DNA from: an uncultured Clostridia bacterium
GTDB lineage: Bacteria; Bacillota; Clostridia; TANB77; CAG-508
Length of the DNA: 30,286 nt
Direction: 5' to 3'
Assembly: GCA_947628085.1 (NCBI GenBank)
Contig: CANQYM010000017.1
Location: forward strand, 1-30,286
Position numbers and translations under genes: made by a program. Numbering within the stretch: position 1 is the stretch's first letter; each line of letters opens with the position of its first letter. Below are positions 4,546-18,397 of the stretch, piece by piece. The notes beneath the pieces are model-generated. The model worked only from the letters and a program-made list of their open reading frames with translations, was not told the DNA's origin and did not search any database.

Positions 4546-6489
<1,944 letters not shown>

Positions 6490-6512
6490 TTAATTAAATA
6501 TACTAAAAGATG

Positions 6513-6547
6513 AAGCCATAAAGAATTCACTTTATGGCTTTTTATAT
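6513..6547 (+). terminator. Rho-independent terminator after gyrB
   Basis: An 11-bp stem AAGCCATAAAG (6513-6523) / CTTTATGGCTT (6530-6540) with a 6-nt loop, followed by a T-rich tail. Confidence 0.6.
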
Positions 6548-6557
6548 TCTAAAAATA

Positions 6558-6613
6558 TCTTAATAATTTCTTAATAATTTCTCTATTTTTTCTTAATAAA
6601 AGTTTGCTATAAT
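6558..6613 (+). promoter_or_regulatory. Four tandem 11-bp direct repeats abutting an extended -10 promoter of the two-component operon
   Basis: TCTTAATAATT (6558-6568), TCTTAATAATT (6569-6579), TCTCTATTTTT (6580-6590) and TCTTAATAAAA (6591-6601), followed by TGCTATAAT (6605-6613). The RBS and ATG follow at 6647. Confidence 0.45.
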
Positions 6614-6646
6614 AAATGCAAAATAATAGCGATAGGAGGTTTTTAA

Positions 6647-7345
6647 ATGTATAATATTTTAGTTTGTGATGATGATAAAGAAATAGTAAAAGCTATTGAA
6701 ATATATTTAAATAAAGAAGGATATAACGTAATTAAAGCATTTGATGGAGAAGAAGCATTAAAAGTTTTAAAAAATAATACTATACATTTAATAATTCTAG
6801 ATATAATGATGCCAAAAAAAGATGGAATTGAAACTTTAAATGAAATTAGAAAAGATAAATCAATTCCCGTTATAATGCTATCTGCAAAATCTGAAGATGA
6901 AGACAAAATTAAAGGATTAAATTTAGGCGCAGATGATTATGTTACAAAGCCATTTAATCCACTAGAATTAATTGCTAGAGTAAATTCTGGAATTAGAAGA
7001 TATACAAAACTTGGAAATTATGAAGCAGAAGAAAATAAAAATATTTTTAAATCAGGAGAACTTGTAATTGATGATAATTTAAAAATTGTAAAAGTAGATG
7101 AACAAGAAATAAAATTAACACCAACAGAGTATAATATTTTAAAATTTTTAACCAAAAATAAAGGAAAAGTTTATTCAATTGAGCAAATATATGAAAATGT
7201 TTGGGAAGATGAAGCATATGCTGCTGAAAATATAATTGCAGTTCATATAAGACATATTAGAGAGAAAATAGAAATAAATCCAAAAGAACCAAAATATTTA
7301 AAAGTTATATGGGGAATAGGATATAAAATAGAAAATTTAGATTAG
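6647..7345 (+). CDS. OmpR/PhoB-family response regulator (receiver plus winged-helix domain)
   Basis: Receiver motifs DDD near the N-terminus, LIILDIMMPKKDG and VTKPF. The C-terminal winged helix reads LTPTEYNILKFL ... IWGIGYK. Confidence 0.9.
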   Translation: MYNILVCDDDKEIVKAIEIYLNKEGYNVIKAFDGEEALKVLKNNTIHLIILDIMMPKKDGIETLNEIRKDKSIPVIMLSAKSEDEDKIKGLNLGADDYVTKPFNPLELIARVNSGIRRYTKLGNYEAEENKNIFKSGELVIDDNLKIVKVDEQEIKLTPTEYNILKFLTKNKGKVYSIEQIYENVWEDEAYAAENIIAVHIRHIREKIEINPKEPKYLKVIWGIGYKIENLD

Positions 7346-7365
7346 ATAAAAAGAGGGATTTTAAA

Positions 7366-9534
7366 ATGAAAGAAAGTAAAATTTTAAAAATTACAAGTTA
7401 CATATTACTTCCAATATTCATTTTAATTATTTTTTTAAGTTGTTTTTTGGAAGTTGGAAAAGAAAGTATGCATGATAAAGAGCGATTTAAAGAAGATGAA
7501 TTTTTTAAAACAGATGATTTTCTATCAGCTTATATGTATATGCTGTCAGATCAAACAAAAAATTTAATTTATCAAAATAGCATATATTCTAGTATAAAAG
7601 ATGGAGATATAAGAATATGCTATAACGTTGTAGATAAGCCAGATTGCTCTCTTTCATATCTTTATAACATAACTGTAAAAAATAAATGTTTTTTAATTCT
7701 TTATAAAAATTTAGCATTAACAAATGTTGAATTAACAGAAAACACAAATACAATTGAAGAAATTAAAAACTTTATACAAAACAATGATAAAAAAGTTAAT
7801 ATAGTAAATGGAATTGTAGAATCAGATAATGAAATATTTTCAAATAAAGCAATTAAATATTGGGAATTATTTAATATAAATTATTATTCAATAACAGAGG
7901 GAGGACAGCACAAAGAGAATGTTGTTGCGGAAAGCATTGAAAATGATTATGAAGCAGAAATATTAGAAGATAGTCCAATAATGATAGAAGAGGTGCCAGA
8001 TAAAAGGGAATATTTTAGTACAACAATTAATGATTTTCAAATATATAGCTCTTATAAAGAAGAAGTAATATATAATTCTTCAGAAAAATTATTTGAAAAG
8101 TTTGTAGAAGAATTAGGAAAATATGAAAACATATTATATACTTTAACACCAGTATCAGTAATAGGAGCAGTTTTATTTTTAGTATATTTAATTATTTCAA
8201 TAGGGCACACAAAAAATAAAGAAGAAATAGATTTAAATGATATAGATAAAATACCTCTAGAAATTGTACTTTTAATAGGTGGAATATTATATGGCATAAT
8301 GATTGGCATTATGTTTGTGGTTATTCCAGATCTTAATATTAGTCATTATGTTTTTGCAGTAAATTTATTCTTTGCAATATATTTTTCAAGCTATATTATT
8401 GGTATGGTAATGGCTGTAACAATCATAAAAAGAATAAAATCAAAAACTTTTGTAAAAAGCAGTATTATTTTAAAAATTTTTATGAAATGTATTAATCTTA
8501 TAAAAAAATTATTTAAAAAAATTGTTAAAATAATATTAAATTTAAGAGAAATATTGCCAAAAACATGGAAATTAGTTTTATTAATAGCAGGATATGTTTT
8601 AATTTGTTTTATACTAATTTTAATGTTTGAAGAATTTGGTCTTTTCTTAGGATTAGTTTTAGGAGCATTCATTTTATATAAAATTTTGATTGAAATAAGA
8701 AATTTTCAAAAAATAGAACAGCATTTAAAAGCAATGTACGAAGGAGATAACTTAAAGAAATTAGATGAAAATGAATTTACAAAAGAATTTAAAAATATAG
8801 TTAAATATATAAACGATATTTCAAAAGGTTTTGAGAATGCAATTCAAGAAGGAATAAAATCTGAGAGATTAAAAACAGAGCTTATTACAAATGTTTCACA
8901 TGATATAAAAACACCGCTTACATCTATTATAAACTATGTGGATTTAATAAAAAAAGAAAATATAGATAATGAAAAAATTAAAGAATATATTGAAGTTTTA
9001 GATAATAAATCTCAAAGATTAAAGAAATTAACAGAAGACTTAGTTGAAGCGTCAAAAGCCTCTTCTGGAAATGTAAAATTAAATATTGAAAAAATAAATA
9101 TTTGTGAGTTAATAAAACAATCAACAGGAGAATTTGAAGATAAATTTAAAAATAAAAATTTAGATGTAATATTAAATATTCCAGAAGAAGAAATTTATAT
9201 AAATGCAGATAATAGATATATGTATAGAATTATTGAAAATTTATTTACAAATATTTCAAAATATGCGTTAGATGCATCTAGAGTTTATATAGATATTACA
9301 AAAAATGAAGAAAAAACAAAAGTTGAAATAAAAAATATTTCAAAAGAAAAATTAAATATATCAGCAGATGAATTAATGCAAAGATTTGTAAGAGGAGATA
9401 AAGCAAGAACAACAGAAGGAAGCGGACTTGGAATATCAATTTCAAAAAGCTTAACAGAACTTCAAAAAGGAAAATTTAATTTAGTTGTAGATGGAGATTT
9501 GTTTAAAGTTGAATTAGAGTTTAAAACTTTATAA
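7366..9534 (+). CDS. Sensor histidine kinase with a large N-terminal extracytoplasmic region and a multi-TM block
   Basis: H-box VSHDIKTPLTSI, N-box ENLFTNISKYA and G-box GSGLGISISK. There is one N-terminal TM, about 230 aa of soluble sequence, then several TM helices before the kinase core. The gene follows the regulator by 20 nt. Confidence 0.9.
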   Translation: MKESKILKITSYILLPIFILIIFLSCFLEVGKESMHDKERFKEDEFFKTDDFLSAYMYMLSDQTKNLIYQNSIYSSIKDGDIRICYNVVDKPDCSLSYLYNITVKNKCFLILYKNLALTNVELTENTNTIEEIKNFIQNNDKKVNIVNGIVESDNEIFSNKAIKYWELFNINYYSITEGGQHKENVVAESIENDYEAEILEDSPIMIEEVPDKREYFSTTINDFQIYSSYKEEVIYNSSEKLFEKFVEELGKYENILYTLTPVSVIGAVLFLVYLIISIGHTKNKEEIDLNDIDKIPLEIVLLIGGILYGIMIGIMFVVIPDLNISHYVFAVNLFFAIYFSSYIIGMVMAVTIIKRIKSKTFVKSSIILKIFMKCINLIKKLFKKIVKIILNLREILPKTWKLVLLIAGYVLICFILILMFEEFGLFLGLVLGAFILYKILIEIRNFQKIEQHLKAMYEGDNLKKLDENEFTKEFKNIVKYINDISKGFENAIQEGIKSERLKTELITNVSHDIKTPLTSIINYVDLIKKENIDNEKIKEYIEVLDNKSQRLKKLTEDLVEASKASSGNVKLNIEKINICELIKQSTGEFEDKFKNKNLDVILNIPEEEIYINADNRYMYRIIENLFTNISKYALDASRVYIDITKNEEKTKVEIKNISKEKLNISADELMQRFVRGDKARTTEGSGLGISISKSLTELQKGKFNLVVDGDLFKVELEFKTL

Positions 9535-9585
9535 AAAAATCTTGACTTATAAAAAATTCTGTTGTAATATAGTTATCAATCAAAG

Positions 9586-9616
9586 GGGCGCAAAAAAATT
9601 GCGCTCTTATTTTTTT
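9586..9616 (+). terminator. Rho-independent terminator after the kinase gene
   Basis: Stem GGGCGCAA (9586-9593) / TTGCGCTC (9599-9606) with an A5 loop, followed by TTATTTTTTT. Confidence 0.6.
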
Positions 9617-9632
9617 AAGGAGGTAGATATAA

Positions 9633-10208
9633 ATAAAAAAAGAAAAAACAACTCAGGGCTGGCTACCATTTGATGAAGTTTTAGAAAACGGAATAATAAA
9701 GCAAAAAAATTCTTATATAAAAATTATAAAAGTAATTCCAATTAATTATGATTTAAAATCAAATTTAGAAAAAGAAGCTATTTTAAATTCTTATAAATTG
9801 TTTTTAAAAACATGCGATTTTAATGTTCAAATAATTATTCAAAGTAAAAAAGAAAATTTATCAAAATATTTTTTTAATCTTAAACAAATTTCCCAAAAAG
9901 AAGAAAACGAAAAAATAAAAGAAATAGCAAAAGAGTATATAGAGTTTATAAAAAATAAAAATGAAGAAAACAAATCAGCATCAAAAAATTTTTATATAGT
10001 TATTAAATATGATTTTGATTTATCCACAAAAAGTGCTCAAACTGTGGATGAAAACATTGCAATTAACTTTTTAAATGAAGGATTTTTTAAAATAAAAGAA
10101 ACTTTATCAAGATGTGGCAATACTGTATATGACATTAATGAAAAACAAGAAGTAGAAGAAATTTTAAATTCATTTTTTAATCAAAAAGGTGAAAAAAAGG
10201 AGGAATGA
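9633..10208 (+). CDS. N-terminal domain of a Gram-positive-type VirB4 (TcpF/PrgJ/Orf16-like) ATPase; no canonical start codon; out of frame with the ATPase domain
   Basis: The frame is open from the TAA at 9630-9632. It reads IKKEKTTQGWLPFDEVLENGIIKQKNSYIKIIKVIPINYDLKSNLEKEAILNSYKLFLKTCDFNVQIIIQSKK, which resembles VirB4 N-termini of Firmicute conjugation systems. A strong AAGGAGG (9617-9623) lies 9 nt before ATA 9633. The first ATG/GTG/TTG in frame is TTG 9798, inside the conserved region. Confidence 0.6.
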   Translation: MKKEKTTQGWLPFDEVLENGIIKQKNSYIKIIKVIPINYDLKSNLEKEAILNSYKLFLKTCDFNVQIIIQSKKENLSKYFFNLKQISQKEENEKIKEIAKEYIEFIKNKNEENKSASKNFYIVIKYDFDLSTKSAQTVDENIAINFLNEGFFKIKETLSRCGNTVYDINEKQEVEEILNSFFNQKGEKKEE

Positions 10209-11964
10209 TAATATAGAAAATTTTTATGATGGAATATTAAATATTAAAGATAAAATGGCACCAAGCTATATAAATAATAAAAATCCAAAATATTTAGAAA
10301 TTGACGGAACTTTTTATAGTGGAATATTAGTAATAGATTATTATAGAGAATATAATGATATTATTTTAAAAAATATTATAAACACAAATATAAATATGAA
10401 TATATCAATATTTTATGAAAAGCAAGATACATATAAAACAATTAAAGATTTAACATATTTTATTGGAAATGTTGGTGTTGATTTAAAATCTGGAAATGAA
10501 AATAGACAAGACATAGACATTGCAGCATATTCATATACAGATGCAAAATATATTAGAAAAGAAATGCAAGTAAATAATGAAGAATTATATTTTTTATATA
10601 CATATATATTAATAATTTCTGAAACAGAACAAGAAATGGAAAGAAATTTAAATAAAATAGAAGGCATTTTACAAGCATCTGGAATGATGACAAGAAAAGG
10701 GAATTTTAGACAAGAGCAAATTTATAATTCTTGTCTTCCTCTAATGGAAAATAATAAAGATATTAAAACTGTTACAAGAAGAAACATTTTAGGAAGTGGA
10801 CTTGTTTCAACATATCCATTTGTTTCATCAAATTTGTGTGATGAAAATGGAATTTTTATTGGAACTAATATTTATAATAATTCAATGATTTTAGTAGATA
10901 GATTTAACAAAGAAAAATATAAAAATGCAAATATGTGTATTTTTGGAACAAGCGGAGCAGGAAAATCTTTTTATACAAAATTATTAATTTTAAGATATAG
11001 GCTTCTTGGATTAGATCAATACATAATAGATCCAGAAAGAGAATATACAAAAATTTGTGAAAGTTTAGATGGAGTTTGTATTAAATTTGGTCCAACTTCT
11101 AATTCATATATAAATATTTTAGATATTAGAGAAGAGGAAATTGAAGAGGAAAAAGGTTTTTTAGTATCTAAACTAAGTAAATTAAGAATATTTTTTAGCT
11201 TAGTTTTTGGAGAATTAGATGAGGAAAATGTTGCACTTTTAGAAGAAAAATTAATAGAAGTTTATAAAGAAAAAGGAATAACTTTTGATGATAATTCTTT
11301 ATATAACGAAAATAAAGAATTTAAAAAAAGCTCACAAATGCCGATTTTACAAGATTTATATGAAATTTTAGGAAAAGATGAAAAAACATTATTTTTTAAA
11401 AGAAAGTTATATCCATTCATATATGGATCATTAAAATTTTTAAATAATTTTACAAACGTTGAACTTGAAAATAAATTAATTGTTGCAGATATATATGAAC
11501 TTGGAGAAGAAAATTTAAAATATGGAATGTATATTTTTACAGAGCTTTTTTGGGACAAGATAAAAAAAGATAGAAATAAAAATAAGGCTATTTATTTAGA
11601 TGAAATTTGGAGATTAATTGGTGTTACATCAAACAAGTTTGTAGCAAGTTTTATATATAAAATATTTAAAACAATTAGAAAATATGGAGGAAGTGCAGTT
11701 GCAATTACACAAGATGTTTCAGATTTATTTAGTTTGGAAGAGGGAACTTATGGTAAAAGTATTTTAAATAATTCTAGTATAAAATCTTTTTTCTCATTAG
11801 AAGAAGAAAATATTTTAGTTTTAGAAAAATATGCAAATATTTCTGAAAAAGAAAAAATAGAAATTAAATCTTTAAAAAGAGGTGAAGCACTTATGTTTAT
11901 TGGAGATAACCACATTTTATCTAAAGTAGAAGCATCTGAATATGAAAAGGAGTTGATAATTTGA
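10189..11964 (+). CDS. VirB4-like T4SS ATPase, central and C-terminal ATPase domains
   Basis: 591-aa ORF with Walker A FGTSGAGKS and Walker B AIYLDEIWRL, ending in ITQDVSD. It overlaps the upstream fragment across an A7 run (10192-10198). Confidence 0.85.
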   Translation: MKKRRNDNIENFYDGILNIKDKMAPSYINNKNPKYLEIDGTFYSGILVIDYYREYNDIILKNIINTNINMNISIFYEKQDTYKTIKDLTYFIGNVGVDLKSGNENRQDIDIAAYSYTDAKYIRKEMQVNNEELYFLYTYILIISETEQEMERNLNKIEGILQASGMMTRKGNFRQEQIYNSCLPLMENNKDIKTVTRRNILGSGLVSTYPFVSSNLCDENGIFIGTNIYNNSMILVDRFNKEKYKNANMCIFGTSGAGKSFYTKLLILRYRLLGLDQYIIDPEREYTKICESLDGVCIKFGPTSNSYINILDIREEEIEEEKGFLVSKLSKLRIFFSLVFGELDEENVALLEEKLIEVYKEKGITFDDNSLYNENKEFKKSSQMPILQDLYEILGKDEKTLFFKRKLYPFIYGSLKFLNNFTNVELENKLIVADIYELGEENLKYGMYIFTELFWDKIKKDRNKNKAIYLDEIWRLIGVTSNKFVASFIYKIFKTIRKYGGSAVAITQDVSDLFSLEEGTYGKSILNNSSIKSFFSLEEENILVLEKYANISEKEKIEIKSLKRGEALMFIGDNHILSKVEASEYEKELII

Positions 11965-13151
11965 AAATTATTACAGCAATGGGAGATCCTTATTTAAACA
12001 ATAAATTAAAAGAAAAATATGAAGTTATTGGAAAAGATATTTTTTATCAAGAAGGAATTTTAGAAATATTAACAGAAAGAAAAGATATCGATTTATTAGT
12101 TTTAAGTAATAATTTGCCTTTTGAATATAAATTTGAAGAATTAATTGAAAAAATAATTAAAGAAAAAGAAGAACTAGAAATAATAGTTTTTCTAAAAGAA
12201 AAAGATGAAAATATTGAAAACTACTTAAATAGCAAAAATATTTATAAAATATTTTATTTAAATGAAGAGGGATATAGAAATTTTTTTAATGTAATTAATT
12301 CAAATGAGAATAATCCTCAAAAAATACAAGATGAAATTAAGAATTTTAAAGAAATAATTTTAAATAATTCTAAGAAAAAAGGAATTAATTTAAAAAGCGA
12401 TTTTTTAAAGAATAAAATTGAAAATGAAGAAAAAAACAAACAAAATTCTAAAAAAGATGAAAAAGAAAATGAGCGAAATTTTGAAAATAGAGAAGAAAAT
12501 AAAAGTTCAAAAATAATAGTAGTTTCTGGAAATTCTGGTGCTGGAAAGACAATAGTATCAATTCTTTTATCGAAATATATAGAAAAGCAAAGCAAGAAAG
12601 TTTTATTAATAGATTTTGATTTAAAAAATAAATCAATTAATACAATATTAGGCGTAAAAACAAAGAAAAATACAGAAGAAAATATAAGTATTTTTAATAA
12701 AAACTTATATATTTTAAATGAAGCAAAAGAAATTTTAAATAGCTTTGAAATATATAAAATAAATATGTTTTTAGAAGAATTAAAAAATAAATTTGATTAT
12801 ATAATAATAGATTTTTCAAATGAATTAAATGAAGAATTAGAAAAAAGCGTACTTTTAAAGGCAAATAAAATTATTTTTTTATTAGAATCAAATTTATTAG
12901 AAATAAAAAAAGCTAAAAACTTTTTAGAAATTTATTTAGAGGATTATGGAATTGATTCTAATAAAATAAAAATAGTATTTAATAAAGCAAACAAATATAA
13001 AATTCCAGATTTTATATTAAAAGAAATTTTTTCTAATTTTGAAATAATAGGAAATATAGAATATGACGAAAAATATACGTTATTTATAAATAAAAATTTT
13101 AATAATATAAATTGTAAAGATGAATATAAAAAAATCTATGAAAAATTATAA
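11961..13151 (+). CDS. TadZ/CpaE-like protein: N-terminal receiver-like domain fused to a MinD/ParA-type ATPase
   Basis: TTG start 8 nt after AAGGAG, overlapping the VirB4 stop. The N-terminus (KIITAMGDPYLNNKLKEKYEVIGKDIFYQEGILEIL...DLLVLSNNLP) looks like a CheY-type fold, but I could not identify an acidic phosphoacceptor pocket. A K/E/N-rich linker follows, then IVVSGNSGAGKT (P-loop) and VLLIDFD. Confidence 0.7.
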   Translation: MKIITAMGDPYLNNKLKEKYEVIGKDIFYQEGILEILTERKDIDLLVLSNNLPFEYKFEELIEKIIKEKEELEIIVFLKEKDENIENYLNSKNIYKIFYLNEEGYRNFFNVINSNENNPQKIQDEIKNFKEIILNNSKKKGINLKSDFLKNKIENEEKNKQNSKKDEKENERNFENREENKSSKIIVVSGNSGAGKTIVSILLSKYIEKQSKKVLLIDFDLKNKSINTILGVKTKKNTEENISIFNKNLYILNEAKEILNSFEIYKINMFLEELKNKFDYIIIDFSNELNEELEKSVLLKANKIIFLLESNLLEIKKAKNFLEIYLEDYGIDSNKIKIVFNKANKYKIPDFILKEIFSNFEIIGNIEYDEKYTLFINKNFNNINCKDEYKKIYEKL

Positions 13152-13162
13152 AAGGAGGAATT

Positions 13163-13888
13163 ATGGTAGGTTTAGAAATAGAAAATAATATAGAAATGAA
13201 AAATAGTTTAGGAGATAAATTAAAAAATTTACAAGAAAATTTTATTGAATCTGATATTGGAAAAGCAATAAATTCAGCAATAGATATAGGATTAAAAGCT
13301 GTTCTTCCAGATTTGATAGAAGACCAAGTAATAGATGTGAAAAATGCAATATTAGAAAACGGATTTTCTGAAGGAATAAAAGAAGTAATAGATTCTGCTA
13401 TAAACACTGGAAAAAGTGCAATAGGAATTATAACAGGAAATTTTGAAAATGTATCACAAATACAATTAGCAGTAAAAAATGGTGGAATACTTGATAAAGT
13501 ATCCGATTTATTAGACTATACAATAGATTTTGCAAAAGAAAAGAATGTAATAGATAAAAATATAAGTTCTCTTATAAAAAATGGTAAAAATTCAATAATT
13601 AAATCTGTAGAAGAAAAAATTGAAGAAACTTTAACTAATCAAATAAAAGCTGTTGAAAAAGTTGAAAAGTACTGTAATAATTGGAATATTGGATACGCTT
13701 CTCAAGATATAACTGCGATGGACAAAGCATATAAGAACATTAAAAATAATTTAGAAAAAATAGTTCCAATAGAAAATATAATTAATAAAGCAAGAACGAT
13801 AGAAAATTTGCATAATTTAATTAAGAGTAATGGTAATAGTTTTGATTTAACTAAAGAAGAGGAAATGCTTGCGGAAAAATTAGCATAA
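13163..13888 (+). CDS. Hypothetical, predicted all-helical protein with an internal AINSAIDIG / VIDSAINTG repeat
   Basis: 241-aa ORF with an AAGGAGG RBS, 11 nt after the preceding gene, so it is probably co-transcribed with the VirB4/TadZ-like genes. I recognise no motif. Confidence 0.65.
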   Translation: MVGLEIENNIEMKNSLGDKLKNLQENFIESDIGKAINSAIDIGLKAVLPDLIEDQVIDVKNAILENGFSEGIKEVIDSAINTGKSAIGIITGNFENVSQIQLAVKNGGILDKVSDLLDYTIDFAKEKNVIDKNISSLIKNGKNSIIKSVEEKIEETLTNQIKAVEKVEKYCNNWNIGYASQDITAMDKAYKNIKNNLEKIVPIENIINKARTIENLHNLIKSNGNSFDLTKEEEMLAEKLA

Positions 13889-13955
13889 AATTTTTCTTCG
13901 AAAAATTTTTGCTTTCAAAAATTTCATTTTTTGAAAATAAAATTTATTTTCTTAT

Positions 13956-14135
13956 CTATAAACTGATACCATTATTAATATATGTTTTTTAATGTTTTGC
14001 TGTCGCAATTTTCTTAAAATAAAGCAAATAAATAAAATTAGAAACAAAATTGCTCCAATCGCCCTTCGCTTATGCTTTGGTTGGTCGCTGCGCATCATTT
14101 AAAAACATATATTAATAACGCTATCAGTTTTATAG
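13956..14135 (+). repeat. Structured intergenic repeat, copy 1 (diverged)
   Basis: Arms 13956-13990 and 14100-14135 pair over about 35 bp. The core 13991-14099 aligns with copies 2 and 3 (TGTCGCAAT...ATTGCTCCAATCGCCCTTCGCT.A.GCTT.GGTTGGTCGCT). Confidence 0.8.
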
Positions 14136-14157
14136 GATAAACTTTTATGAATAAATC

Positions 14158-14186
14158 TTGAAATAAATACAATGTGTAAGTATAAT
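14158..14186 (+). promoter_or_regulatory. Sigma-70-type promoter for the HExxH gene
   Basis: TTGAAA (14158-14163), a 17-nt spacer, then TATAAT (14181-14186). Confidence 0.5.
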
Positions 14187-14220
14187 AAAAGTATAATAAT
14201 TTTATAAAAGGAATTTTTAT

Positions 14221-15438
14221 ATGGATATAGAGTATAATGTTAATGATGAAAATAGAAAAGTTTTAGAAGACGTATGCGAAAAATATGGATATTCAGAAGA
14301 ATTAAAAAGTGTTTTATCAAAAGTAATGCCAGCTATGTTAGAAGGAGCTACATATGAAGAAAGAACTCTTTTTTATAGTATGCTAAGAAAAACACCAATA
14401 GAAATTATTCCTGCTGAATCTACAATAACACGTTCAGAATTAAGCAAAAAGCATTTTGGAGAGATTAATCCACATATAATAGATGCAGAAACAGACATTG
14501 GTGAATACGGAAAAACAGAACCGGCAGGAAGTTTTGTTAGAGAAGCGGAATTAGATGATGATTTAAAAATAAAAGGTGTTAGGCAATATCTTTTTATAAG
14601 AGAATTAAGTGAGAAAAACGAAAAAAATAGAAGAGCAATAGATTTATTAGGAACCAAAATAAATGTTTCTCATTTAATACATGAATTAGGGCATGCATGG
14701 GTTTCAGAAAAAAACGGATATGAGTTAGATGATAATGGAATACTTACAGAACGAACAGGAACTTGTAAAATAAAATATCAAATAACACCTCTTGAAAATG
14801 GAAAATATGAGAGAAGAGAAATTTCTAGAACAGGATTAATGTTAGAAGAGTCATTAAACACAAATATGGAAGAAGAAAGTTTAGCTAGGTATTTAGGACT
14901 TTCTAGAGAAAAAACTAAATTATTATATAGAGCCTCAGGATGTTTAGAGAGTTCCTTATATCAAGGTCTAATGTCAGAAATGAGTGAAACATTAACAGAA
15001 AGAACCAAAGGAAGAAGTTTAAGAAGTTGGAGAATAGAGGGGAACGAAAAAGCCTTAGAAGAATTAAATTCCGTAATGATGAAAACAAATGAATATCAAA
15101 ATAGAGAAACGGGAAATGAATATTTTAAAGATAAGGCAGAAATTTTCGAAGAAAAAACTAGAGAAGGAGCGACAAACGAAAGACTTAAAAGATTTCTTCT
15201 TAGATGTAAAAAAGACTTTTTCCCTAACAAAAAAGATATGACACCAATGGAAATTATAGAAGCAACATTAAGACAATGTTATGATGTAAAAGTAAATCAA
15301 CTAACCTTTGATTTTTCTACAGAAGAAAAAATAGAAGAGTATCAAAAATTCGTACATTCAGTATTAGCAGACGGATATCTTTTAATAAAAGATACTGATG
15401 AATATTTAAAAAATAAAAGCCAAGATTTAAGTAAATAA
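14221..15438 (+). CDS. Hypothetical cytoplasmic protein with an HExxH zinc-metallopeptidase motif
   Basis: 405-aa ORF with HELGHAW followed by acidic EESLN/EEE that could supply a third ligand. There is no signal peptide. The sequence is visibly richer in R/G/T codons than its neighbours. Confidence 0.7.
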   Translation: MDIEYNVNDENRKVLEDVCEKYGYSEELKSVLSKVMPAMLEGATYEERTLFYSMLRKTPIEIIPAESTITRSELSKKHFGEINPHIIDAETDIGEYGKTEPAGSFVREAELDDDLKIKGVRQYLFIRELSEKNEKNRRAIDLLGTKINVSHLIHELGHAWVSEKNGYELDDNGILTERTGTCKIKYQITPLENGKYERREISRTGLMLEESLNTNMEEESLARYLGLSREKTKLLYRASGCLESSLYQGLMSEMSETLTERTKGRSLRSWRIEGNEKALEELNSVMMKTNEYQNRETGNEYFKDKAEIFEEKTREGATNERLKRFLLRCKKDFFPNKKDMTPMEIIEATLRQCYDVKVNQLTFDFSTEEKIEEYQKFVHSVLADGYLLIKDTDEYLKNKSQDLSK

Positions 15439-15463
15439 AAATATGATAAAATTTTAATTTTTA

Positions 15464-15496
15464 CGGGCAAAATTAAAGAAATTTTGCCTGTTTTTT
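15464..15496 (+). terminator. Rho-independent terminator after the HExxH gene
   Basis: Stem GGCAAAAT (15466-15473) / ATTTTGCC (15481-15488), followed by a T6 run at 15491-15496. Confidence 0.6.
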
Positions 15497-15497
15497 C

Positions 15498-15527
15498 TTG
15501 ATTTTTCCTACATATTTATTATATAAT
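15498..15527 (+). promoter_or_regulatory. Candidate gyrA promoter
   Basis: TTGATT (15498-15503), an 18-nt spacer, then TATAAT (15522-15527). Confidence 0.45.
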
Positions 15528-15563
15528 GCAATAGAAAAGTAATATAAGAAAAGAGGGAAATAA

Positions 15564-18005
15564 ATGGAAAGGCAAGATGGAAAAATAATCGAAAGAAACA
15601 TTGAAGCTGAAATGAAAACAGCATATATTGATTATGCAATGAGTGTTATAGTTTCACGTGCTTTACCAGATGTTAGAGATGGTTTAAAACCTGTTCATAG
15701 AAGAATTCTTTATTCTATGCACGAAGATGGAATTACATCAGATAAACCTTATAGAAAGTGTGCAAATACAGTTGGATCTGTTTTAGGTAGATACCATCCT
15801 CATGGAGATTCTTCTGTTTATGATGCTATGGTTAGACTTGCTCAAGATTTTTCAATGAGATATATGCTAATTGATGGACATGGTAACTTTGGTTCAATAG
15901 ATGGTGATGGAGCTGCTGCAATGAGGTACACAGAATCTAGGATGTCAAAAATAGCAGAGCAAATGTTAGTAGATATTGAAAAAAATACAGTAGATTTTAT
16001 GCCAAACTATGATGACAGACTTCAAGAACCAACAGTACTTCCATCTAAAATACCAGCACTACTAATAAATGGTTCTTCTGGAATTGCCGTAGGTATGGCA
16101 ACCAATATACCTCCACACAATTTAACAGAAGTTATTAATGGTGCAATAAAGGTTATTGAAGATGACAATGTTACAAATGAAGAATTAATGCAAATAATTA
16201 AAGGTCCAGATTTTCCAACAGGAGCAATGATTCTTGGAAAAGAAGGAATAAAAGAGGCTTATACAACAGGTAAAGGAAAAATAACTGTAAGAGCTGAAAC
16301 AGAAATAGAAGAAATGTCTGGTGGAAGACAAAGAATTATTGTTTCATCACTTCCATATCAAGTAAATAAAGCAAACTTAATAATAAAAATAGATGAACTA
16401 ATAAAAGAGAAGAAAATAGAAGGTGTTTCAGAAGTTAGAGATGAATCAGACAGAAATGAAAGAGTAAGAATAGTTATTGAACTAAAAAGAGATGCTAGAC
16501 CTCAAGTAATACTAAATCAATTATTTAAGCATACACAAATGCAAGATACTTTTGGTGTTATAATGCTTGCACTAGTTAATGGAGAACCTAAAATATTAAC
16601 ATTAAAAGAATGCTTAGAAGAATATATTAAACATAGAAGAGAAGTAGTTTTAAGAAGAACAAAATTCGATTTAGATAAGGCAGAAGCCAGAGCTCACATA
16701 TTAGAAGGTTTAATAATTGCTATTGATAATATTGATGAAGTAGTTAAAATAATTCGTGAATCTTATGATGATGCAAAAGAAAGATTAATGGAAAGATTTA
16801 AACTTACAGATATACAAGCACAAGCAATTCTTGATATGCAACTTAAGAGATTATCTGGTTTGCAAAGAGAAAAACTAGAAGAAGAATATGCAGAATTAAT
16901 GAAATTAATAGCATATTATAAAGAAGTTTTATCTAGCGAAACTCTAGTTTTTGAAATTATAAAAACAGAACTTATTGAAATTAGAGATAAATTTGGAGAT
17001 GAAAGATTAACAAAAATCTCTGCGGCAGAAGGTGAATTTGAAGAAGAAGACTTAGTAAAAGAAGAACAAACAGTAATTGCTTTAACACACTTTGGATATA
17101 TAAAGAGAATGCCAATAGATACTTATAAGAGTCAAAGAAGAGGCGGAAAAGGTATTACAGGAATTGCAACAAGAGAAGATGATTTTGTTAAAGAAATCTT
17201 TTCAGCATCTACGCATGATACAATATTATTCTTTAGTAATAAAGGAAAAATGTATAGATTAAGAGGATTTGAAATTCCAGAAGCCGGCAGAACCGCAAAA
17301 GGAACAGCTATAGTAAACTTATTAAATCTAGAAGCTGGAGAAAAAATTTCTGCAATTATTCCTATACAAAATTTTGCAGAAGGCAAATATTTATTAATGG
17401 GAACAAAATCTGGATTAATAAAGAAAACACCATTACAAGAATATGATTCTAACAGAAGAACAGGATTAATGGGAATAACTTTAAGAGAAGACGATGAACT
17501 TATAGATGTTAGAATGACAGATGGACAAGATAATGTTGTTTTAGTTACAAGAAAAGGTATGAGTATAACATTTGATGAAAAAGATGTTAGACCAGTTGGA
17601 AGAACAGCCCAAGGCGTAATCGGAATGAGATTAGATGATGATGACTATGTTGTTGGTATGGAACCAATTATAGCAGGAAGCCAAGCAACATTACTTGCAA
17701 TTACAGAGAACGGATTTGGAAAGAGAACTGAGCTTGAAGAATATAGAGTTCAAAATAGAGGCGGAAGAGGAGTTATAACATATAAGATTACACCAAAAAC
17801 TGGTGAACTTGTTGGAATTAAAATTGTTAGTGGAAAAGAAGATGTTATATTAATAACAGATACAGGAACAATTATAAGATTAAACTCAGGAGAAATTAGT
17901 GTTCTAGGAAGATCAACACAAGGTGTTACATTAATGAGAACTAATGAAGGAAAAGTTGTAAGTATTGAAAAAATAGTTGAAGAAGATTCAGACTATGTAA
18001 TTTAA
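15564..18005 (+). CDS. gyrA: DNA gyrase subunit A
   Basis: 813-aa ORF with HPHGDSSVYD (QRDR region), AAMRYTE (catalytic Tyr) and C-terminal beta-pinwheel repeats (GRGG.G, GRTAQGV, GRSTQGV). Confidence 0.97.
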   Translation: MERQDGKIIERNIEAEMKTAYIDYAMSVIVSRALPDVRDGLKPVHRRILYSMHEDGITSDKPYRKCANTVGSVLGRYHPHGDSSVYDAMVRLAQDFSMRYMLIDGHGNFGSIDGDGAAAMRYTESRMSKIAEQMLVDIEKNTVDFMPNYDDRLQEPTVLPSKIPALLINGSSGIAVGMATNIPPHNLTEVINGAIKVIEDDNVTNEELMQIIKGPDFPTGAMILGKEGIKEAYTTGKGKITVRAETEIEEMSGGRQRIIVSSLPYQVNKANLIIKIDELIKEKKIEGVSEVRDESDRNERVRIVIELKRDARPQVILNQLFKHTQMQDTFGVIMLALVNGEPKILTLKECLEEYIKHRREVVLRRTKFDLDKAEARAHILEGLIIAIDNIDEVVKIIRESYDDAKERLMERFKLTDIQAQAILDMQLKRLSGLQREKLEEEYAELMKLIAYYKEVLSSETLVFEIIKTELIEIRDKFGDERLTKISAAEGEFEEEDLVKEEQTVIALTHFGYIKRMPIDTYKSQRRGGKGITGIATREDDFVKEIFSASTHDTILFFSNKGKMYRLRGFEIPEAGRTAKGTAIVNLLNLEAGEKISAIIPIQNFAEGKYLLMGTKSGLIKKTPLQEYDSNRRTGLMGITLREDDELIDVRMTDGQDNVVLVTRKGMSITFDEKDVRPVGRTAQGVIGMRLDDDDYVVGMEPIIAGSQATLLAITENGFGKRTELEEYRVQNRGGRGVITYKITPKTGELVGIKIVSGKEDVILITDTGTIIRLNSGEISVLGRSTQGVTLMRTNEGKVVSIEKIVEEDSDYVI

Positions 18006-18019
18006 AATATTTCATTTAG

Positions 18020-18059
18020 AAATCTGAATTGAAGAATTTACTTCAATTCAGATTTTTTT
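18020..18059 (+). terminator. Strong rho-independent terminator after gyrA
   Basis: A 15-bp stem AAATCTGAATTGAAG (18020-18034) / CTTCAATTCAGATTT (18041-18055), followed by a T run. Confidence 0.75.
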
Positions 18060-18154
18060 GCCTAATTAAAAATTATTCATAAATAACTTTTTTTAATATT
18101 AGTAATTCATTTTTGAATAAAAATAATTATTAATTTTAATTATTAAATTTTTCT

Positions 18155-18320
18155 ATAGAAGCACTTAATATATAAATAATTTTATTAGTGACTTGGTGTC
18201 GCAATCTCCTTTTTTTAAAATAAACAAAAGGAAGATTGCTCCAATCGCCCTTCGCTAACGCTTCGGTTGGTCGCTTACGCGTCACTTATAAAATTATTTA
18301 TATATATTAAGTACTTCTAT
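18155..18320 (+). repeat. Structured intergenic repeat, copy 2
   Basis: Arms 18155-18185 and 18288-18320 pair over about 30 bp. The core 18187-18286 is nearly identical to the reverse complement of 21629-21730. Confidence 0.85.
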
Positions 18321-18397
18321 TTTGAAATTTTATATCTTTATTTTTTATAATTTATTTAATATAATTAAATAAATTATAAAGGAGCAAAAATTTAAAG

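Follow-up and report, generated by a model that had tools for sequence, protein, structure and literature searches.

Downstream of gyrA in a contig from an uncultured Clostridia bacterium (CANQYM010000017.1, assembly GCA_947628085.1; the whole stretch of 30,286 nt that was analyzed is called the window here) lies a 166-nt repeat with a GC-rich core on long AT-rich arms. A first-pass annotation made from the letters described this repeat at 18155-18320 and offered three readings of it: an independent small RNA, a DNA-level site, or a REP-like insulator. What kind of element is it, and in which form might it act? We found that it belongs to a non-coding family of about 165 nt that had no earlier catalogue entry and is present in a few uncultured, very AT-rich gut Clostridia, with about 30 copies per genome. 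Its distribution is that of a dispersed repeat, being patchy in close relatives, expanded in one lineage, intergenic and free in orientation, with tandem amplification and inversion. Judged from sequence comparison, the family is real and represents an unusual form of a kind of small dispersed repeat that other bacteria are known to have. Since orientation is random, the core has been flipped, sites are empty in relatives and copies occur in tandem arrays, a dispersed REP- or ERIC-like repeat is favored over an RNA gene of a single orientation; the choice offered by the first-pass annotation is thereby narrowed, but not settled. We give an even chance to the reading that the family is a lineage-restricted, non-autonomous repeat of the ERIC/Correia/REPIN type with an inverted conservation logic, which would act while folded as a single strand, read-through transcripts being its most likely setting.

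Anatomy and fold of the repeat

The features of the reference copy, the other two copies in the window and two neighboring signals are as follows.

18155-18320, plus strand: reference copy, 166 nt in all, made up of 5' arm, core and 3' arm; covariance model match at 18181-18292, 134 bits
18155-18192, plus strand: 5' arm of the long helix; 36 of 38 positions are Watson-Crick
18187-18192, plus strand: AGTGAC, innermost part of the 5' arm, one side of the closing helix P1; semi-conserved and covarying, with double changes in five of five pairs
18193-18280, plus strand: conserved core of 88 nt, the three-way-junction cap
18201-18239, plus strand: inner hairpin GCAATCTCC / GGAAGATTGC whose A/T-rich tip varies in length; compensatory changes in five of seven pairs
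18241-18270, plus strand: irregular GC-rich hairpin CCAA-(TCGC bulge)-CC-TTC-GC-TAAC-GC-TTC-GG-TTGG; CC/GG covaries and CCAA/TTGG is kept, with four wobble variants
18281-18320, plus strand: 3' arm of the long helix
21597-21761, minus strand: second copy, 165 nt, in reverse orientation; core at 21635-21724
13960-14130, plus strand: third copy, diverged, 171 nt; core at about 13997-14093; model match of 97.5 bits
18020-18059, plus strand: likely gyrA terminator, a hairpin and T-run after the gyrA stop and upstream of the repeat (context only)
18322-18351, plus strand: promoter-like TTGAAA-18-TATAAT directly 3' of the 3' arm, 11 of 12 matches (context only)

The letters at 18155-18320 were as described, and they form a genuine, constrained and structured repeat. 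The reverse-complement copy and the diverged copy reported by the first-pass annotation exist, with the full extents given above, and a repeat finder linked all three copies. A 16-mer of the core occurred three times in the window, against 0.03 occurrences expected. In the three copies a core of about 88-97 nt caps an AT-rich stem of 33-40 bp that is about 95% Watson-Crick; the third copy represents a subfamily in which the ends read TTGCTGTCGC...CTGCGC and the hairpin tip is longer. The G+C content of the core without its loop was 55%, which bears out the earlier hand count of slightly above one half, compared with 10.6% for the arms and 24.2% for the window. The four TCGC motifs are present (18199, 18245, 18252 and 18271). 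Against shuffled sequences, the fold z-score of the reference copy was about -10 on either strand. There is no long open reading frame (ORF) or transposase at the reference copy, and ARAGORN found no tRNA, tmRNA or tRNA-like cloverleaf in the window. A coding role for the repeat was rejected, since the length of the hairpin tip and the P1 sequence vary across the copies and no reading frame is preserved.

As the first-pass annotation had proposed, copies were counted with a covariance model and covariation was measured. The model was built from 29 copies and searched in the window and in the loci collected around copies, and it recovered 49 copies. In the alignment of these 49 copies, 97.5% of cells were paired and 12 of 22 pairs were changed on both sides; none of 500 shuffles attained the observed measures, and slid controls were 22-39% paired. 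This covariation indicates that the single-stranded fold matters. The long pairing of the arms that had been noticed by eye was upheld. All five pairs of the innermost stem covary, and AGTGAC/GTCACT was therefore assigned to the variable stem: it does pair as a closing helix, as first described, but it is not part of the invariant core. The inner hairpin with its length-variable A/T loop is likewise supported by five covarying pairs. Beside the symmetric internal loop, two C-G pairs are replaced by A-U in three loci and by U-A in another.

Two details of the earlier description were amended. The central CCAA had been thought to pair with either the upstream or the downstream TTGG in two mutually exclusive folds. 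Only the downstream pairing is kept (47 of 49 copies, with 43 C-G and four U.G at the variable position), while the upstream pairing is broken in 11 of 49 copies and is not compensated. The C(UUCG)G letters that had been pointed out are no tetraloop hairpin; in the fold supported by covariation they are one strand of an internal loop and of the GG/CC helix. The supported fold, as predicted from the alignment, is a three-way junction at which the long helix meets two hairpins, an irregular GC-rich one and the A/T-tipped one. The GC-rich hairpin at 18241-18270 contains the most conserved block of the family. About 35 nucleotides of the core are invariant and unpaired, and many of them surround the three-way junction.

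The arms and the core are conserved in different ways. The unit is 152-178 nt long among the copies, and its outer helix has a mean of 36 pairs, most copies having 33-40; Watson-Crick pairs numbered 930 and mismatches 61. The complementarity of the arms stops about 40-42 nt away from the core. Between copies, the ungapped pairwise identity of the arms was 0.43, compared with 0.39 expected by chance from composition. The core, in contrast, was on average about 97% identical to the consensus (87-100%; 25 copies from the window and the rabbit-gut genome bin45 described below), and its divergence did not follow that of the arms (rho 0.12). Nevertheless, an arm consensus, CTCTTATAGTATTTATATATAATTTTAT-AAGTGAC, was still recognizable in 17 of 25 arms, significantly above their own shuffles, and conservation falls off outward from the core. 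Since these arms resemble the consensus and the consensus arm was never found without a core, we take the arms to have belonged to the unit from its origin and to have drifted since; they are constrained only to pair, whereas the cap is constrained in sequence. One A-T to G-C double change separates orthologous arms of the window and of locus L011 (L-numbers such as L004, L005 and L011 are labels of individual loci or contigs compared with the window).

Three other origins or uses of the arms were rejected. Insertion of the core into pre-existing palindromes would require such palindromes to exist without it, but long core-less palindromes were few and shorter (22-28 bp), and the consensus arm never occurred among core-less sequences. 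Solo GTGAC..GTCAC hairpins as insertion targets were not enriched (6 versus 6.9 expected). A palindrome spanning all of the extra intergenic DNA was not seen, as the outer flanks were no more complementary than mismatched pairs of flanks. The arms are also no guides or addresses, because in 385 kb they matched only themselves, their partner arm and their orthologues. In Candidatus Scatovivens faecipullorum (L042 and L043, 6930-6975) a zero-loop palindrome with the halves ATAAAAGTGACTTTT and AAAAGTCACTTTTAT directly follows gyrA and has GTGAC/GTCAC in common with the closing helix of the repeat. Since such hairpins are not enriched overall, this palindrome is probably a coincidental terminator.

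Distribution of the family and its genomic sites

An exact 19-mer of the core was found at 29 loci in one-genome-per-species GTDB contigs. Three of these were chance matches in GC-rich coding DNA, and the other 26 were true copies in AT-rich metagenome-assembled genomes (MAGs) of Clostridia, mostly in Lapin-005__bin45 (here bin45) from the rabbit gut, which shares about 97% identity with the window across 6.1 kb. At least 31 of the 49 copies recovered by the covariance model are in bin45 loci, and a few are in related Clostridia, where the first-pass annotation had suggested looking for the core. About ten of the model-found copies lack the exact 19-mer, so the conservation of the central block is not just a matter of ascertainment; this block is identical in distant genomes. 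A subfamily without the tip of the inner hairpin is represented by variants at L019 and L004. Homologues of GyrA place the host near Candidatus Scatovivens (93% identity), and the model found no copies in the 11-kb gyrA loci of three related species. A metagenome scan for divergent lineages with a BTTGC... pattern yielded one more true copy, which was truncated, and three chance matches in GC-rich DNA. Sequence searches did not find the repeat in viral contigs, phages or plasmids. No Rfam 15 family, including hammerhead, twister, pistol, hatchet, glmS, HEARO and ROOL, matched the window at the gathering threshold, in agreement with the earlier view that the repeat belongs to no known RNA family. 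When three diverse copies were scanned at permissive E-values, there were only weak sub-threshold matches that were mutually inconsistent.

Every copy is intergenic, and the core 19-mer was never inside a larger coding element. With respect to the neighboring genes, 15 copies are co-oriented with both, seven are opposite to both, five lie between divergent genes and three between convergent genes. Orientation relative to the local GC skew was 20 versus 16, so there is neither a rule nor a lagging-strand bias. An all-against-all comparison of ORFs from 26 loci revealed no protein family or ORF that recurs near the copies. No transposase, HUH, RAYT or recombinase gene was seen in the 8-11-kb loci around about 40 copies, which extends the earlier statement that no ORF or transposase is near the window copy to the surrounding loci.

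In the window, the reference copy has the gyrA terminator (18020-18059) on one side and the next ribosome-binding site (RBS) on the other, as first described. The TTGAAA-18-TATAAT site at 18322-18351 precedes the RBS of a CxxCxxCC-family gene. The third copy has the same terminator-repeat-promoter layout, with a promoter-like site downstream at 14158-14186. All three window copies point to the downstream gene, which would suit a cis-regulatory 5' leader or riboswitch. One copy in a distant low-copy genome would suit it as well: at L005 (4430-4480) the 3' arm overlaps the GGAGGAG RBS and the start codon of a zinc-ribbon gene, and because of this overlap the stem could block translation initiation of that gene. 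However, the downstream genes, which include folA and those for a CxxCxxCC protein and a zinc-ribbon protein, are not related to one another, the promoters are downstream of the repeat, and seven of the 22 copies flanked by co-directional genes have the opposite orientation. A mere local duplication relic is excluded by the 49 copies in several species. A leader or relic is therefore hardly tenable as an explanation of the family.

The same arrangement raises the question of whether the repeat is purely a bidirectional terminator or insulator hairpin, with the core as a mere GC clamp. The copies are intergenic and often follow the 3' end of a gene, and a long symmetric hairpin would serve both directions; moreover, operon junctions of 21-27 nt in relatives are replaced by repeat-bearing spacers with a separate promoter. 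Yet T-runs are not enriched after either arm (3.3 T per 8 nt after the 3' arm), the arms have only 10.6% G+C, and a terminator scan reported none for the arms. In addition, the upstream genes already own terminators, five copies lie between divergent genes, and a clamp would not need the roughly 35 invariant unpaired nucleotides of the core. We consider this explanation very unlikely.

To compare orthologous sites, loci of relatives were anchored on GyrA. Species whose GyrA is 92-96% identical have no repeat at the 18-kb and 21.6-kb sites. At these empty sites the flanking genes are 21-27 nt apart or are split by unrelated spacers of 105-138 nt. The 21.6-kb copy sits between genes for 291-aa and 102-aa proteins, which are about 25 nt apart in a repeat-less relative, and at this site in the window we found no convincing terminator or promoter between the flanking genes and the repeat. 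This copy is thus likely to be co-transcribed with its neighbors. The 14-kb site is empty in a sister species that keeps the 18-kb copy. At the 21.6-kb site the sister species has two or three tandem copies, whose arms are in place and whose core has the opposite orientation to that in the window. Tandem arrays were found at several loci. Three or two full units with a 161-nt period are present at L011 (2428-2862) and at L046 and L048 (10548-10834), and three units of the tip-less subfamily with a period of about 117 nt at L019 (4520-4840).

An inverted core at the same site in sister species is what an inverton would produce, that is, a phase-variation switch with the arms as recombinase sites and a promoter in the core. 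In one copy there was a weak outward match, TTGCGA-18-TATTAT. All conspecific assemblies examined, however, agree in orientation at the repeat loci, the arms differ between copies so that there is no common recombinase site, no invertase gene was seen nearby, and the promoter matches are weak and not conserved. The repeat is most improbable as an inverton.

Between the gyrA stop and the repeat, unrelated terminator cassettes are present in the window (18006-18154) and in L037, L046 and L048 (6943-7010). This swap occurs among strains with identical or near-identical GyrA, and the switch point, some 11 nt short of the 5' arm, suggests that recombination took place at the repeat or close to it. 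Short AT-rich tandem repeats are directly upstream of several copies (L022, 7371-7513; L026, 2136-2200; L020, 1400-1470), one example being the 23-mer ATACTTCAAAAATATATTTTTTA. The Logan contigs L035 and L036 start about 117 nt upstream of the 102-aa gene, and in the window the repeat starts about 58 nt upstream of that gene; the repeat therefore appears to break short-read assemblies.

Comparison with known repeats and competing explanations

Small dispersed palindromic repeats such as REP, ERIC, Correia and BOX are known mainly from cultured Proteobacteria and from a few Firmicutes, and their ends are conserved. ERIC elements (also called IRU) of Enterobacteriaceae are imperfect palindromes of about 127 bp. 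Correia elements carry conserved 26-bp terminal repeats and a TA duplication, and their hairpin is cleaved by RNase III in RNA. In REP elements the paired parts are conserved together with a 5' tetranucleotide, and REPINs contain them as inverted doublets. Repeats that resemble MITEs (miniature transposable elements with inverted repeats) form long stem-loops; they are co-transcribed and change how stable the mRNA is (PMC3184786). In elements of the ERIC type the terminal inverted repeats are conserved and there are TA or target duplications, and Correia elements can carry promoters as well as protein-binding sites in their core (PMC3184786).

The Clostridia repeat resembles ERIC/IRU, RUP, BOX, bcr1 and RPE in being short, non-coding, intergenic and dispersed and in forming a long stem-loop. 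With ERIC-type elements it shares the occurrence in either orientation and an abundance that varies strongly between related genomes; the view that ERIC-type repeats act in co-transcribed mRNA (PMC3184786) was counted as a further likeness. Unlike in ERIC, its termini are the least conserved part, there is no duplication, and its centre is nearly invariant. Similar to Correia elements (CREE) of Neisseria, which are about 100-160 nt long, it has many intergenic copies and would be co-transcribed with neighbors, but it lacks conserved termini, the TA duplication and a conserved promoter. With the RAYT-mobilized REP and REPIN elements it has in common that it is palindromic, extragenic and non-autonomous, lacks a target duplication, would be recognized as a folded single strand and has expanded in particular genomes. 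Its paired arms, however, vary freely, the conserved part is a non-palindromic cap, and the 8-11-kb loci around copies contain no RAYT gene. PATE-like elements derived from IS200/IS605 have a constant target of four or five nucleotides at the left junction, different subterminal hairpins at their two ends and a lagging-strand bias. In the Clostridia repeat, in contrast, the junctions are complementary to each other and variable, and orientation does not follow GC skew (20 versus 16).

Integron attC sites are alike in that structure is conserved over sequence through most of the palindrome and that they are used as folded single strands. In attC, however, the outer R boxes (RYYYAAC / GTTRRRY) are conserved and the centre is variable, which is the reverse of the Clostridia repeat, and attC sites form cassette arrays beside an integrase, while the repeats are scattered among housekeeping genes. 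The RNase III processing stalks of rRNA are comparable only in the way they work, as a long near-perfect duplex of arbitrary flanks encloses a conserved structured RNA; the repeat differs from them in having no fixed direction of transcription and in being dispensable in close relatives. Overall, the repeat has the features of small dispersed repeats or of MITEs in the broad sense, being short, non-coding, multicopy and intergenic, with presence/absence polymorphism and a long stem-loop. It lacks the conserved termini and the target duplication that are among the defining features of classical, IS-derived MITEs, and it departs from the REP and attC patterns, and its conservation logic is opposite to theirs. 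In particular, terminal inverted repeats conserved among copies, which define MITEs, were not found, and the 14-nt flanks of 25 copies contained no target-site duplication or shared motif; no constant tetranucleotide was present in the flanks.

If the family is such a variant of the ERIC, Correia or REPIN type, it might have spread by duplication or by mobilization in trans, and the conserved cap might be the recognition module for a protein that processes or mobilizes the element. Any effect would be exerted by the fold in read-through transcripts. A perfect duplex of about 36 bp would be a natural substrate of RNase III and a barrier to exonucleases, and it would uncouple neighboring cistrons or stabilize their ends, as reported for ERIC, Correia and REP. 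Such a transcript fold could work in either orientation, because both strands give mirror-image folds of equal stability.

Several results weigh against this reading. Conserved termini, a target-site duplication and an associated transposase were all unseen, and mobility is thus inferred from the distribution only. No clean empty-site junction could be aligned, since the AT-rich spacers of the sister species are unalignable, and the window gained 250-365 nt where relatives are repeat-free, which is more than the 165-nt unit. The core is intact even on copies with fully diverged arms. A simple selfish decay does not predict intact cores; they need selection on each copy, gene conversion limited to the core, or renewal of the arms. 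Furthermore, two of the window copies sit between a terminator and a promoter, and read-through across them may be low. Finally, wobble-type mismatches in the stem numbered 20 compared with 41 others, and neither strand was predicted to be more stable (21 versus 18 copies better, p = 0.49). Since the mismatches are not dominated by G.U and neither strand folds better, there is no clear signature of a constraint specifically at the RNA level.

These strand results also bear on a DNA-level element, in which a trans-acting HUH or tyrosine transposase, a recombinase or a nucleoid protein would recognize the conserved cap and hairpin, either folded in single-stranded DNA or as a site in the duplex. 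Such an element would be mobilized or maintained through single-stranded DNA in the manner of REPIN/RAYT or IS200/IS605, and its stem would be kept complementary by DNA processes such as the correction of quasi-palindromes through template switching. Equal folding of both strands, the random orientation with respect to genes and skew, the missing strong G.U preference among stem mismatches and the core that flips between inverted arms at an orthologous site all agree with this explanation, as does the absence of a target-site duplication, which is also absent with IS200/IS605-type elements. In addition, some copies contain mini-hairpins of the GCGAAGC / GC-GNA-GC type, which are very stable in DNA as well. 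On the other hand, there is no HUH, RAYT or recombinase gene near about 40 copies, no lagging-strand bias of orientation and no conserved flanking tetranucleotide, and the covariation of the 2-bp core helix is unlike what palindrome correction produces. On balance a DNA-level element is unlikely, but it is one of the two main rivals.

The strand complementary to 18155-18320 shows signals that look like RNA. Its hairpin loop is GUAA, with the variants GUGA, GCAA and GAAA, and it has a GAA/GAA internal loop. The mini-hairpins and GNRA-type loops that the first-pass annotation saw on this antisense strand are thus there, but they are suggestive only, because the GNRA rule is violated in 6 of 29 copies and neither strand folds better. 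On the complementary strand, wobble-type events numbered about 26 and A.C-type events about 13, a G.U excess that is borderline. These signals would fit a family of independent structured small-RNA genes, possibly protein sponges or self-cleaving ribozymes, in which the three-way junction would be the functional RNA and the long helix a stalk processed in the way RNase III releases rRNAs. A GC-rich core in a genome of 24% G+C is typical of structural RNAs, and the many invariant unpaired nucleotides around the junction and the identity of the central block in distant genomes point in the same direction. However, no conserved promoter or terminator was seen at a fixed distance. At one orthologous site the orientation is reversed, and elsewhere it is random; close relatives lack the element, which is therefore dispensable. 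The exceptions to the GNRA rule, the lack of an energy asymmetry between strands and the absence of any Rfam ribozyme family at threshold also argue against such genes, which we regard as distinctly unlikely.

A bolder proposal is that the cap is a new functional nucleic-acid module on a locus-specific stalk of about 36 bp that serves for delivery or processing; we hold it to be unlikely. In one version the module may be a new class of structured RNA, a ribozyme or a protein-binding RNA, that is freed from any transcript by duplex-specific cleavage. In the other version it may be the recognition structure of a new kind of mobile element; only the folded cap would be recognized, and palindromic arms of any sequence would be tolerated or made anew. 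Both versions would account for some 31 paralogous caps that are on average about 97% identical although their stems have drifted to unrelated sequences.

Should the family turn out to be merely a selfish repeat, it would extend the catalogue of such elements only modestly. It does reverse their usual logic, with a near-invariant GC-rich junction cap and a stem that is free in sequence and yet about 95% paired. It thus provides a clean natural experiment on how hairpin complementarity is kept up, by selection on RNA or by palindrome correction at the DNA level, and the cap is a candidate for a new protein-recognition or catalytic fold. The repeat also marks operon junctions that were split in one lineage, and its covariance model can be used to annotate these MAGs.

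Gene order around gyrB and gyrA

In the window gyrB and gyrA are about 9 kb apart (4564-18005). Between them are a histidine kinase, a VirB4/DUF87-like ATPase, a ParA-like ATPase and ORFs without Pfam matches, and DnaC-like, DnaB_2 and TraG-like genes follow at 19090-24364. This mixture of origin-region and conjugation-like genes around gyrB and gyrA is unusual and is conserved in relatives. Synteny breaks just after the CxxCxxCC gene, at about 19026 in the window, from 7870 in L037 and at 1-1871 in L008. In an assembly with identical GyrA, a DEAD/ResIII protein of 1677 aa replaces the DnaC-like block past about 19026, and the alignment of the near-identical MAG bin45 with the window does not begin before 19026. 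In a related species (L044 and L045, 1320-3125), gyrB is separated from a gene for a 405-aa protein by about 1.8 kb of AT-rich DNA in which no gene was called. One GyrA-like protein of 1081 aa (P0001) on a 5-kb contig carries an extra PF04762 domain, and it is probably the product of a fused or mis-called gene.

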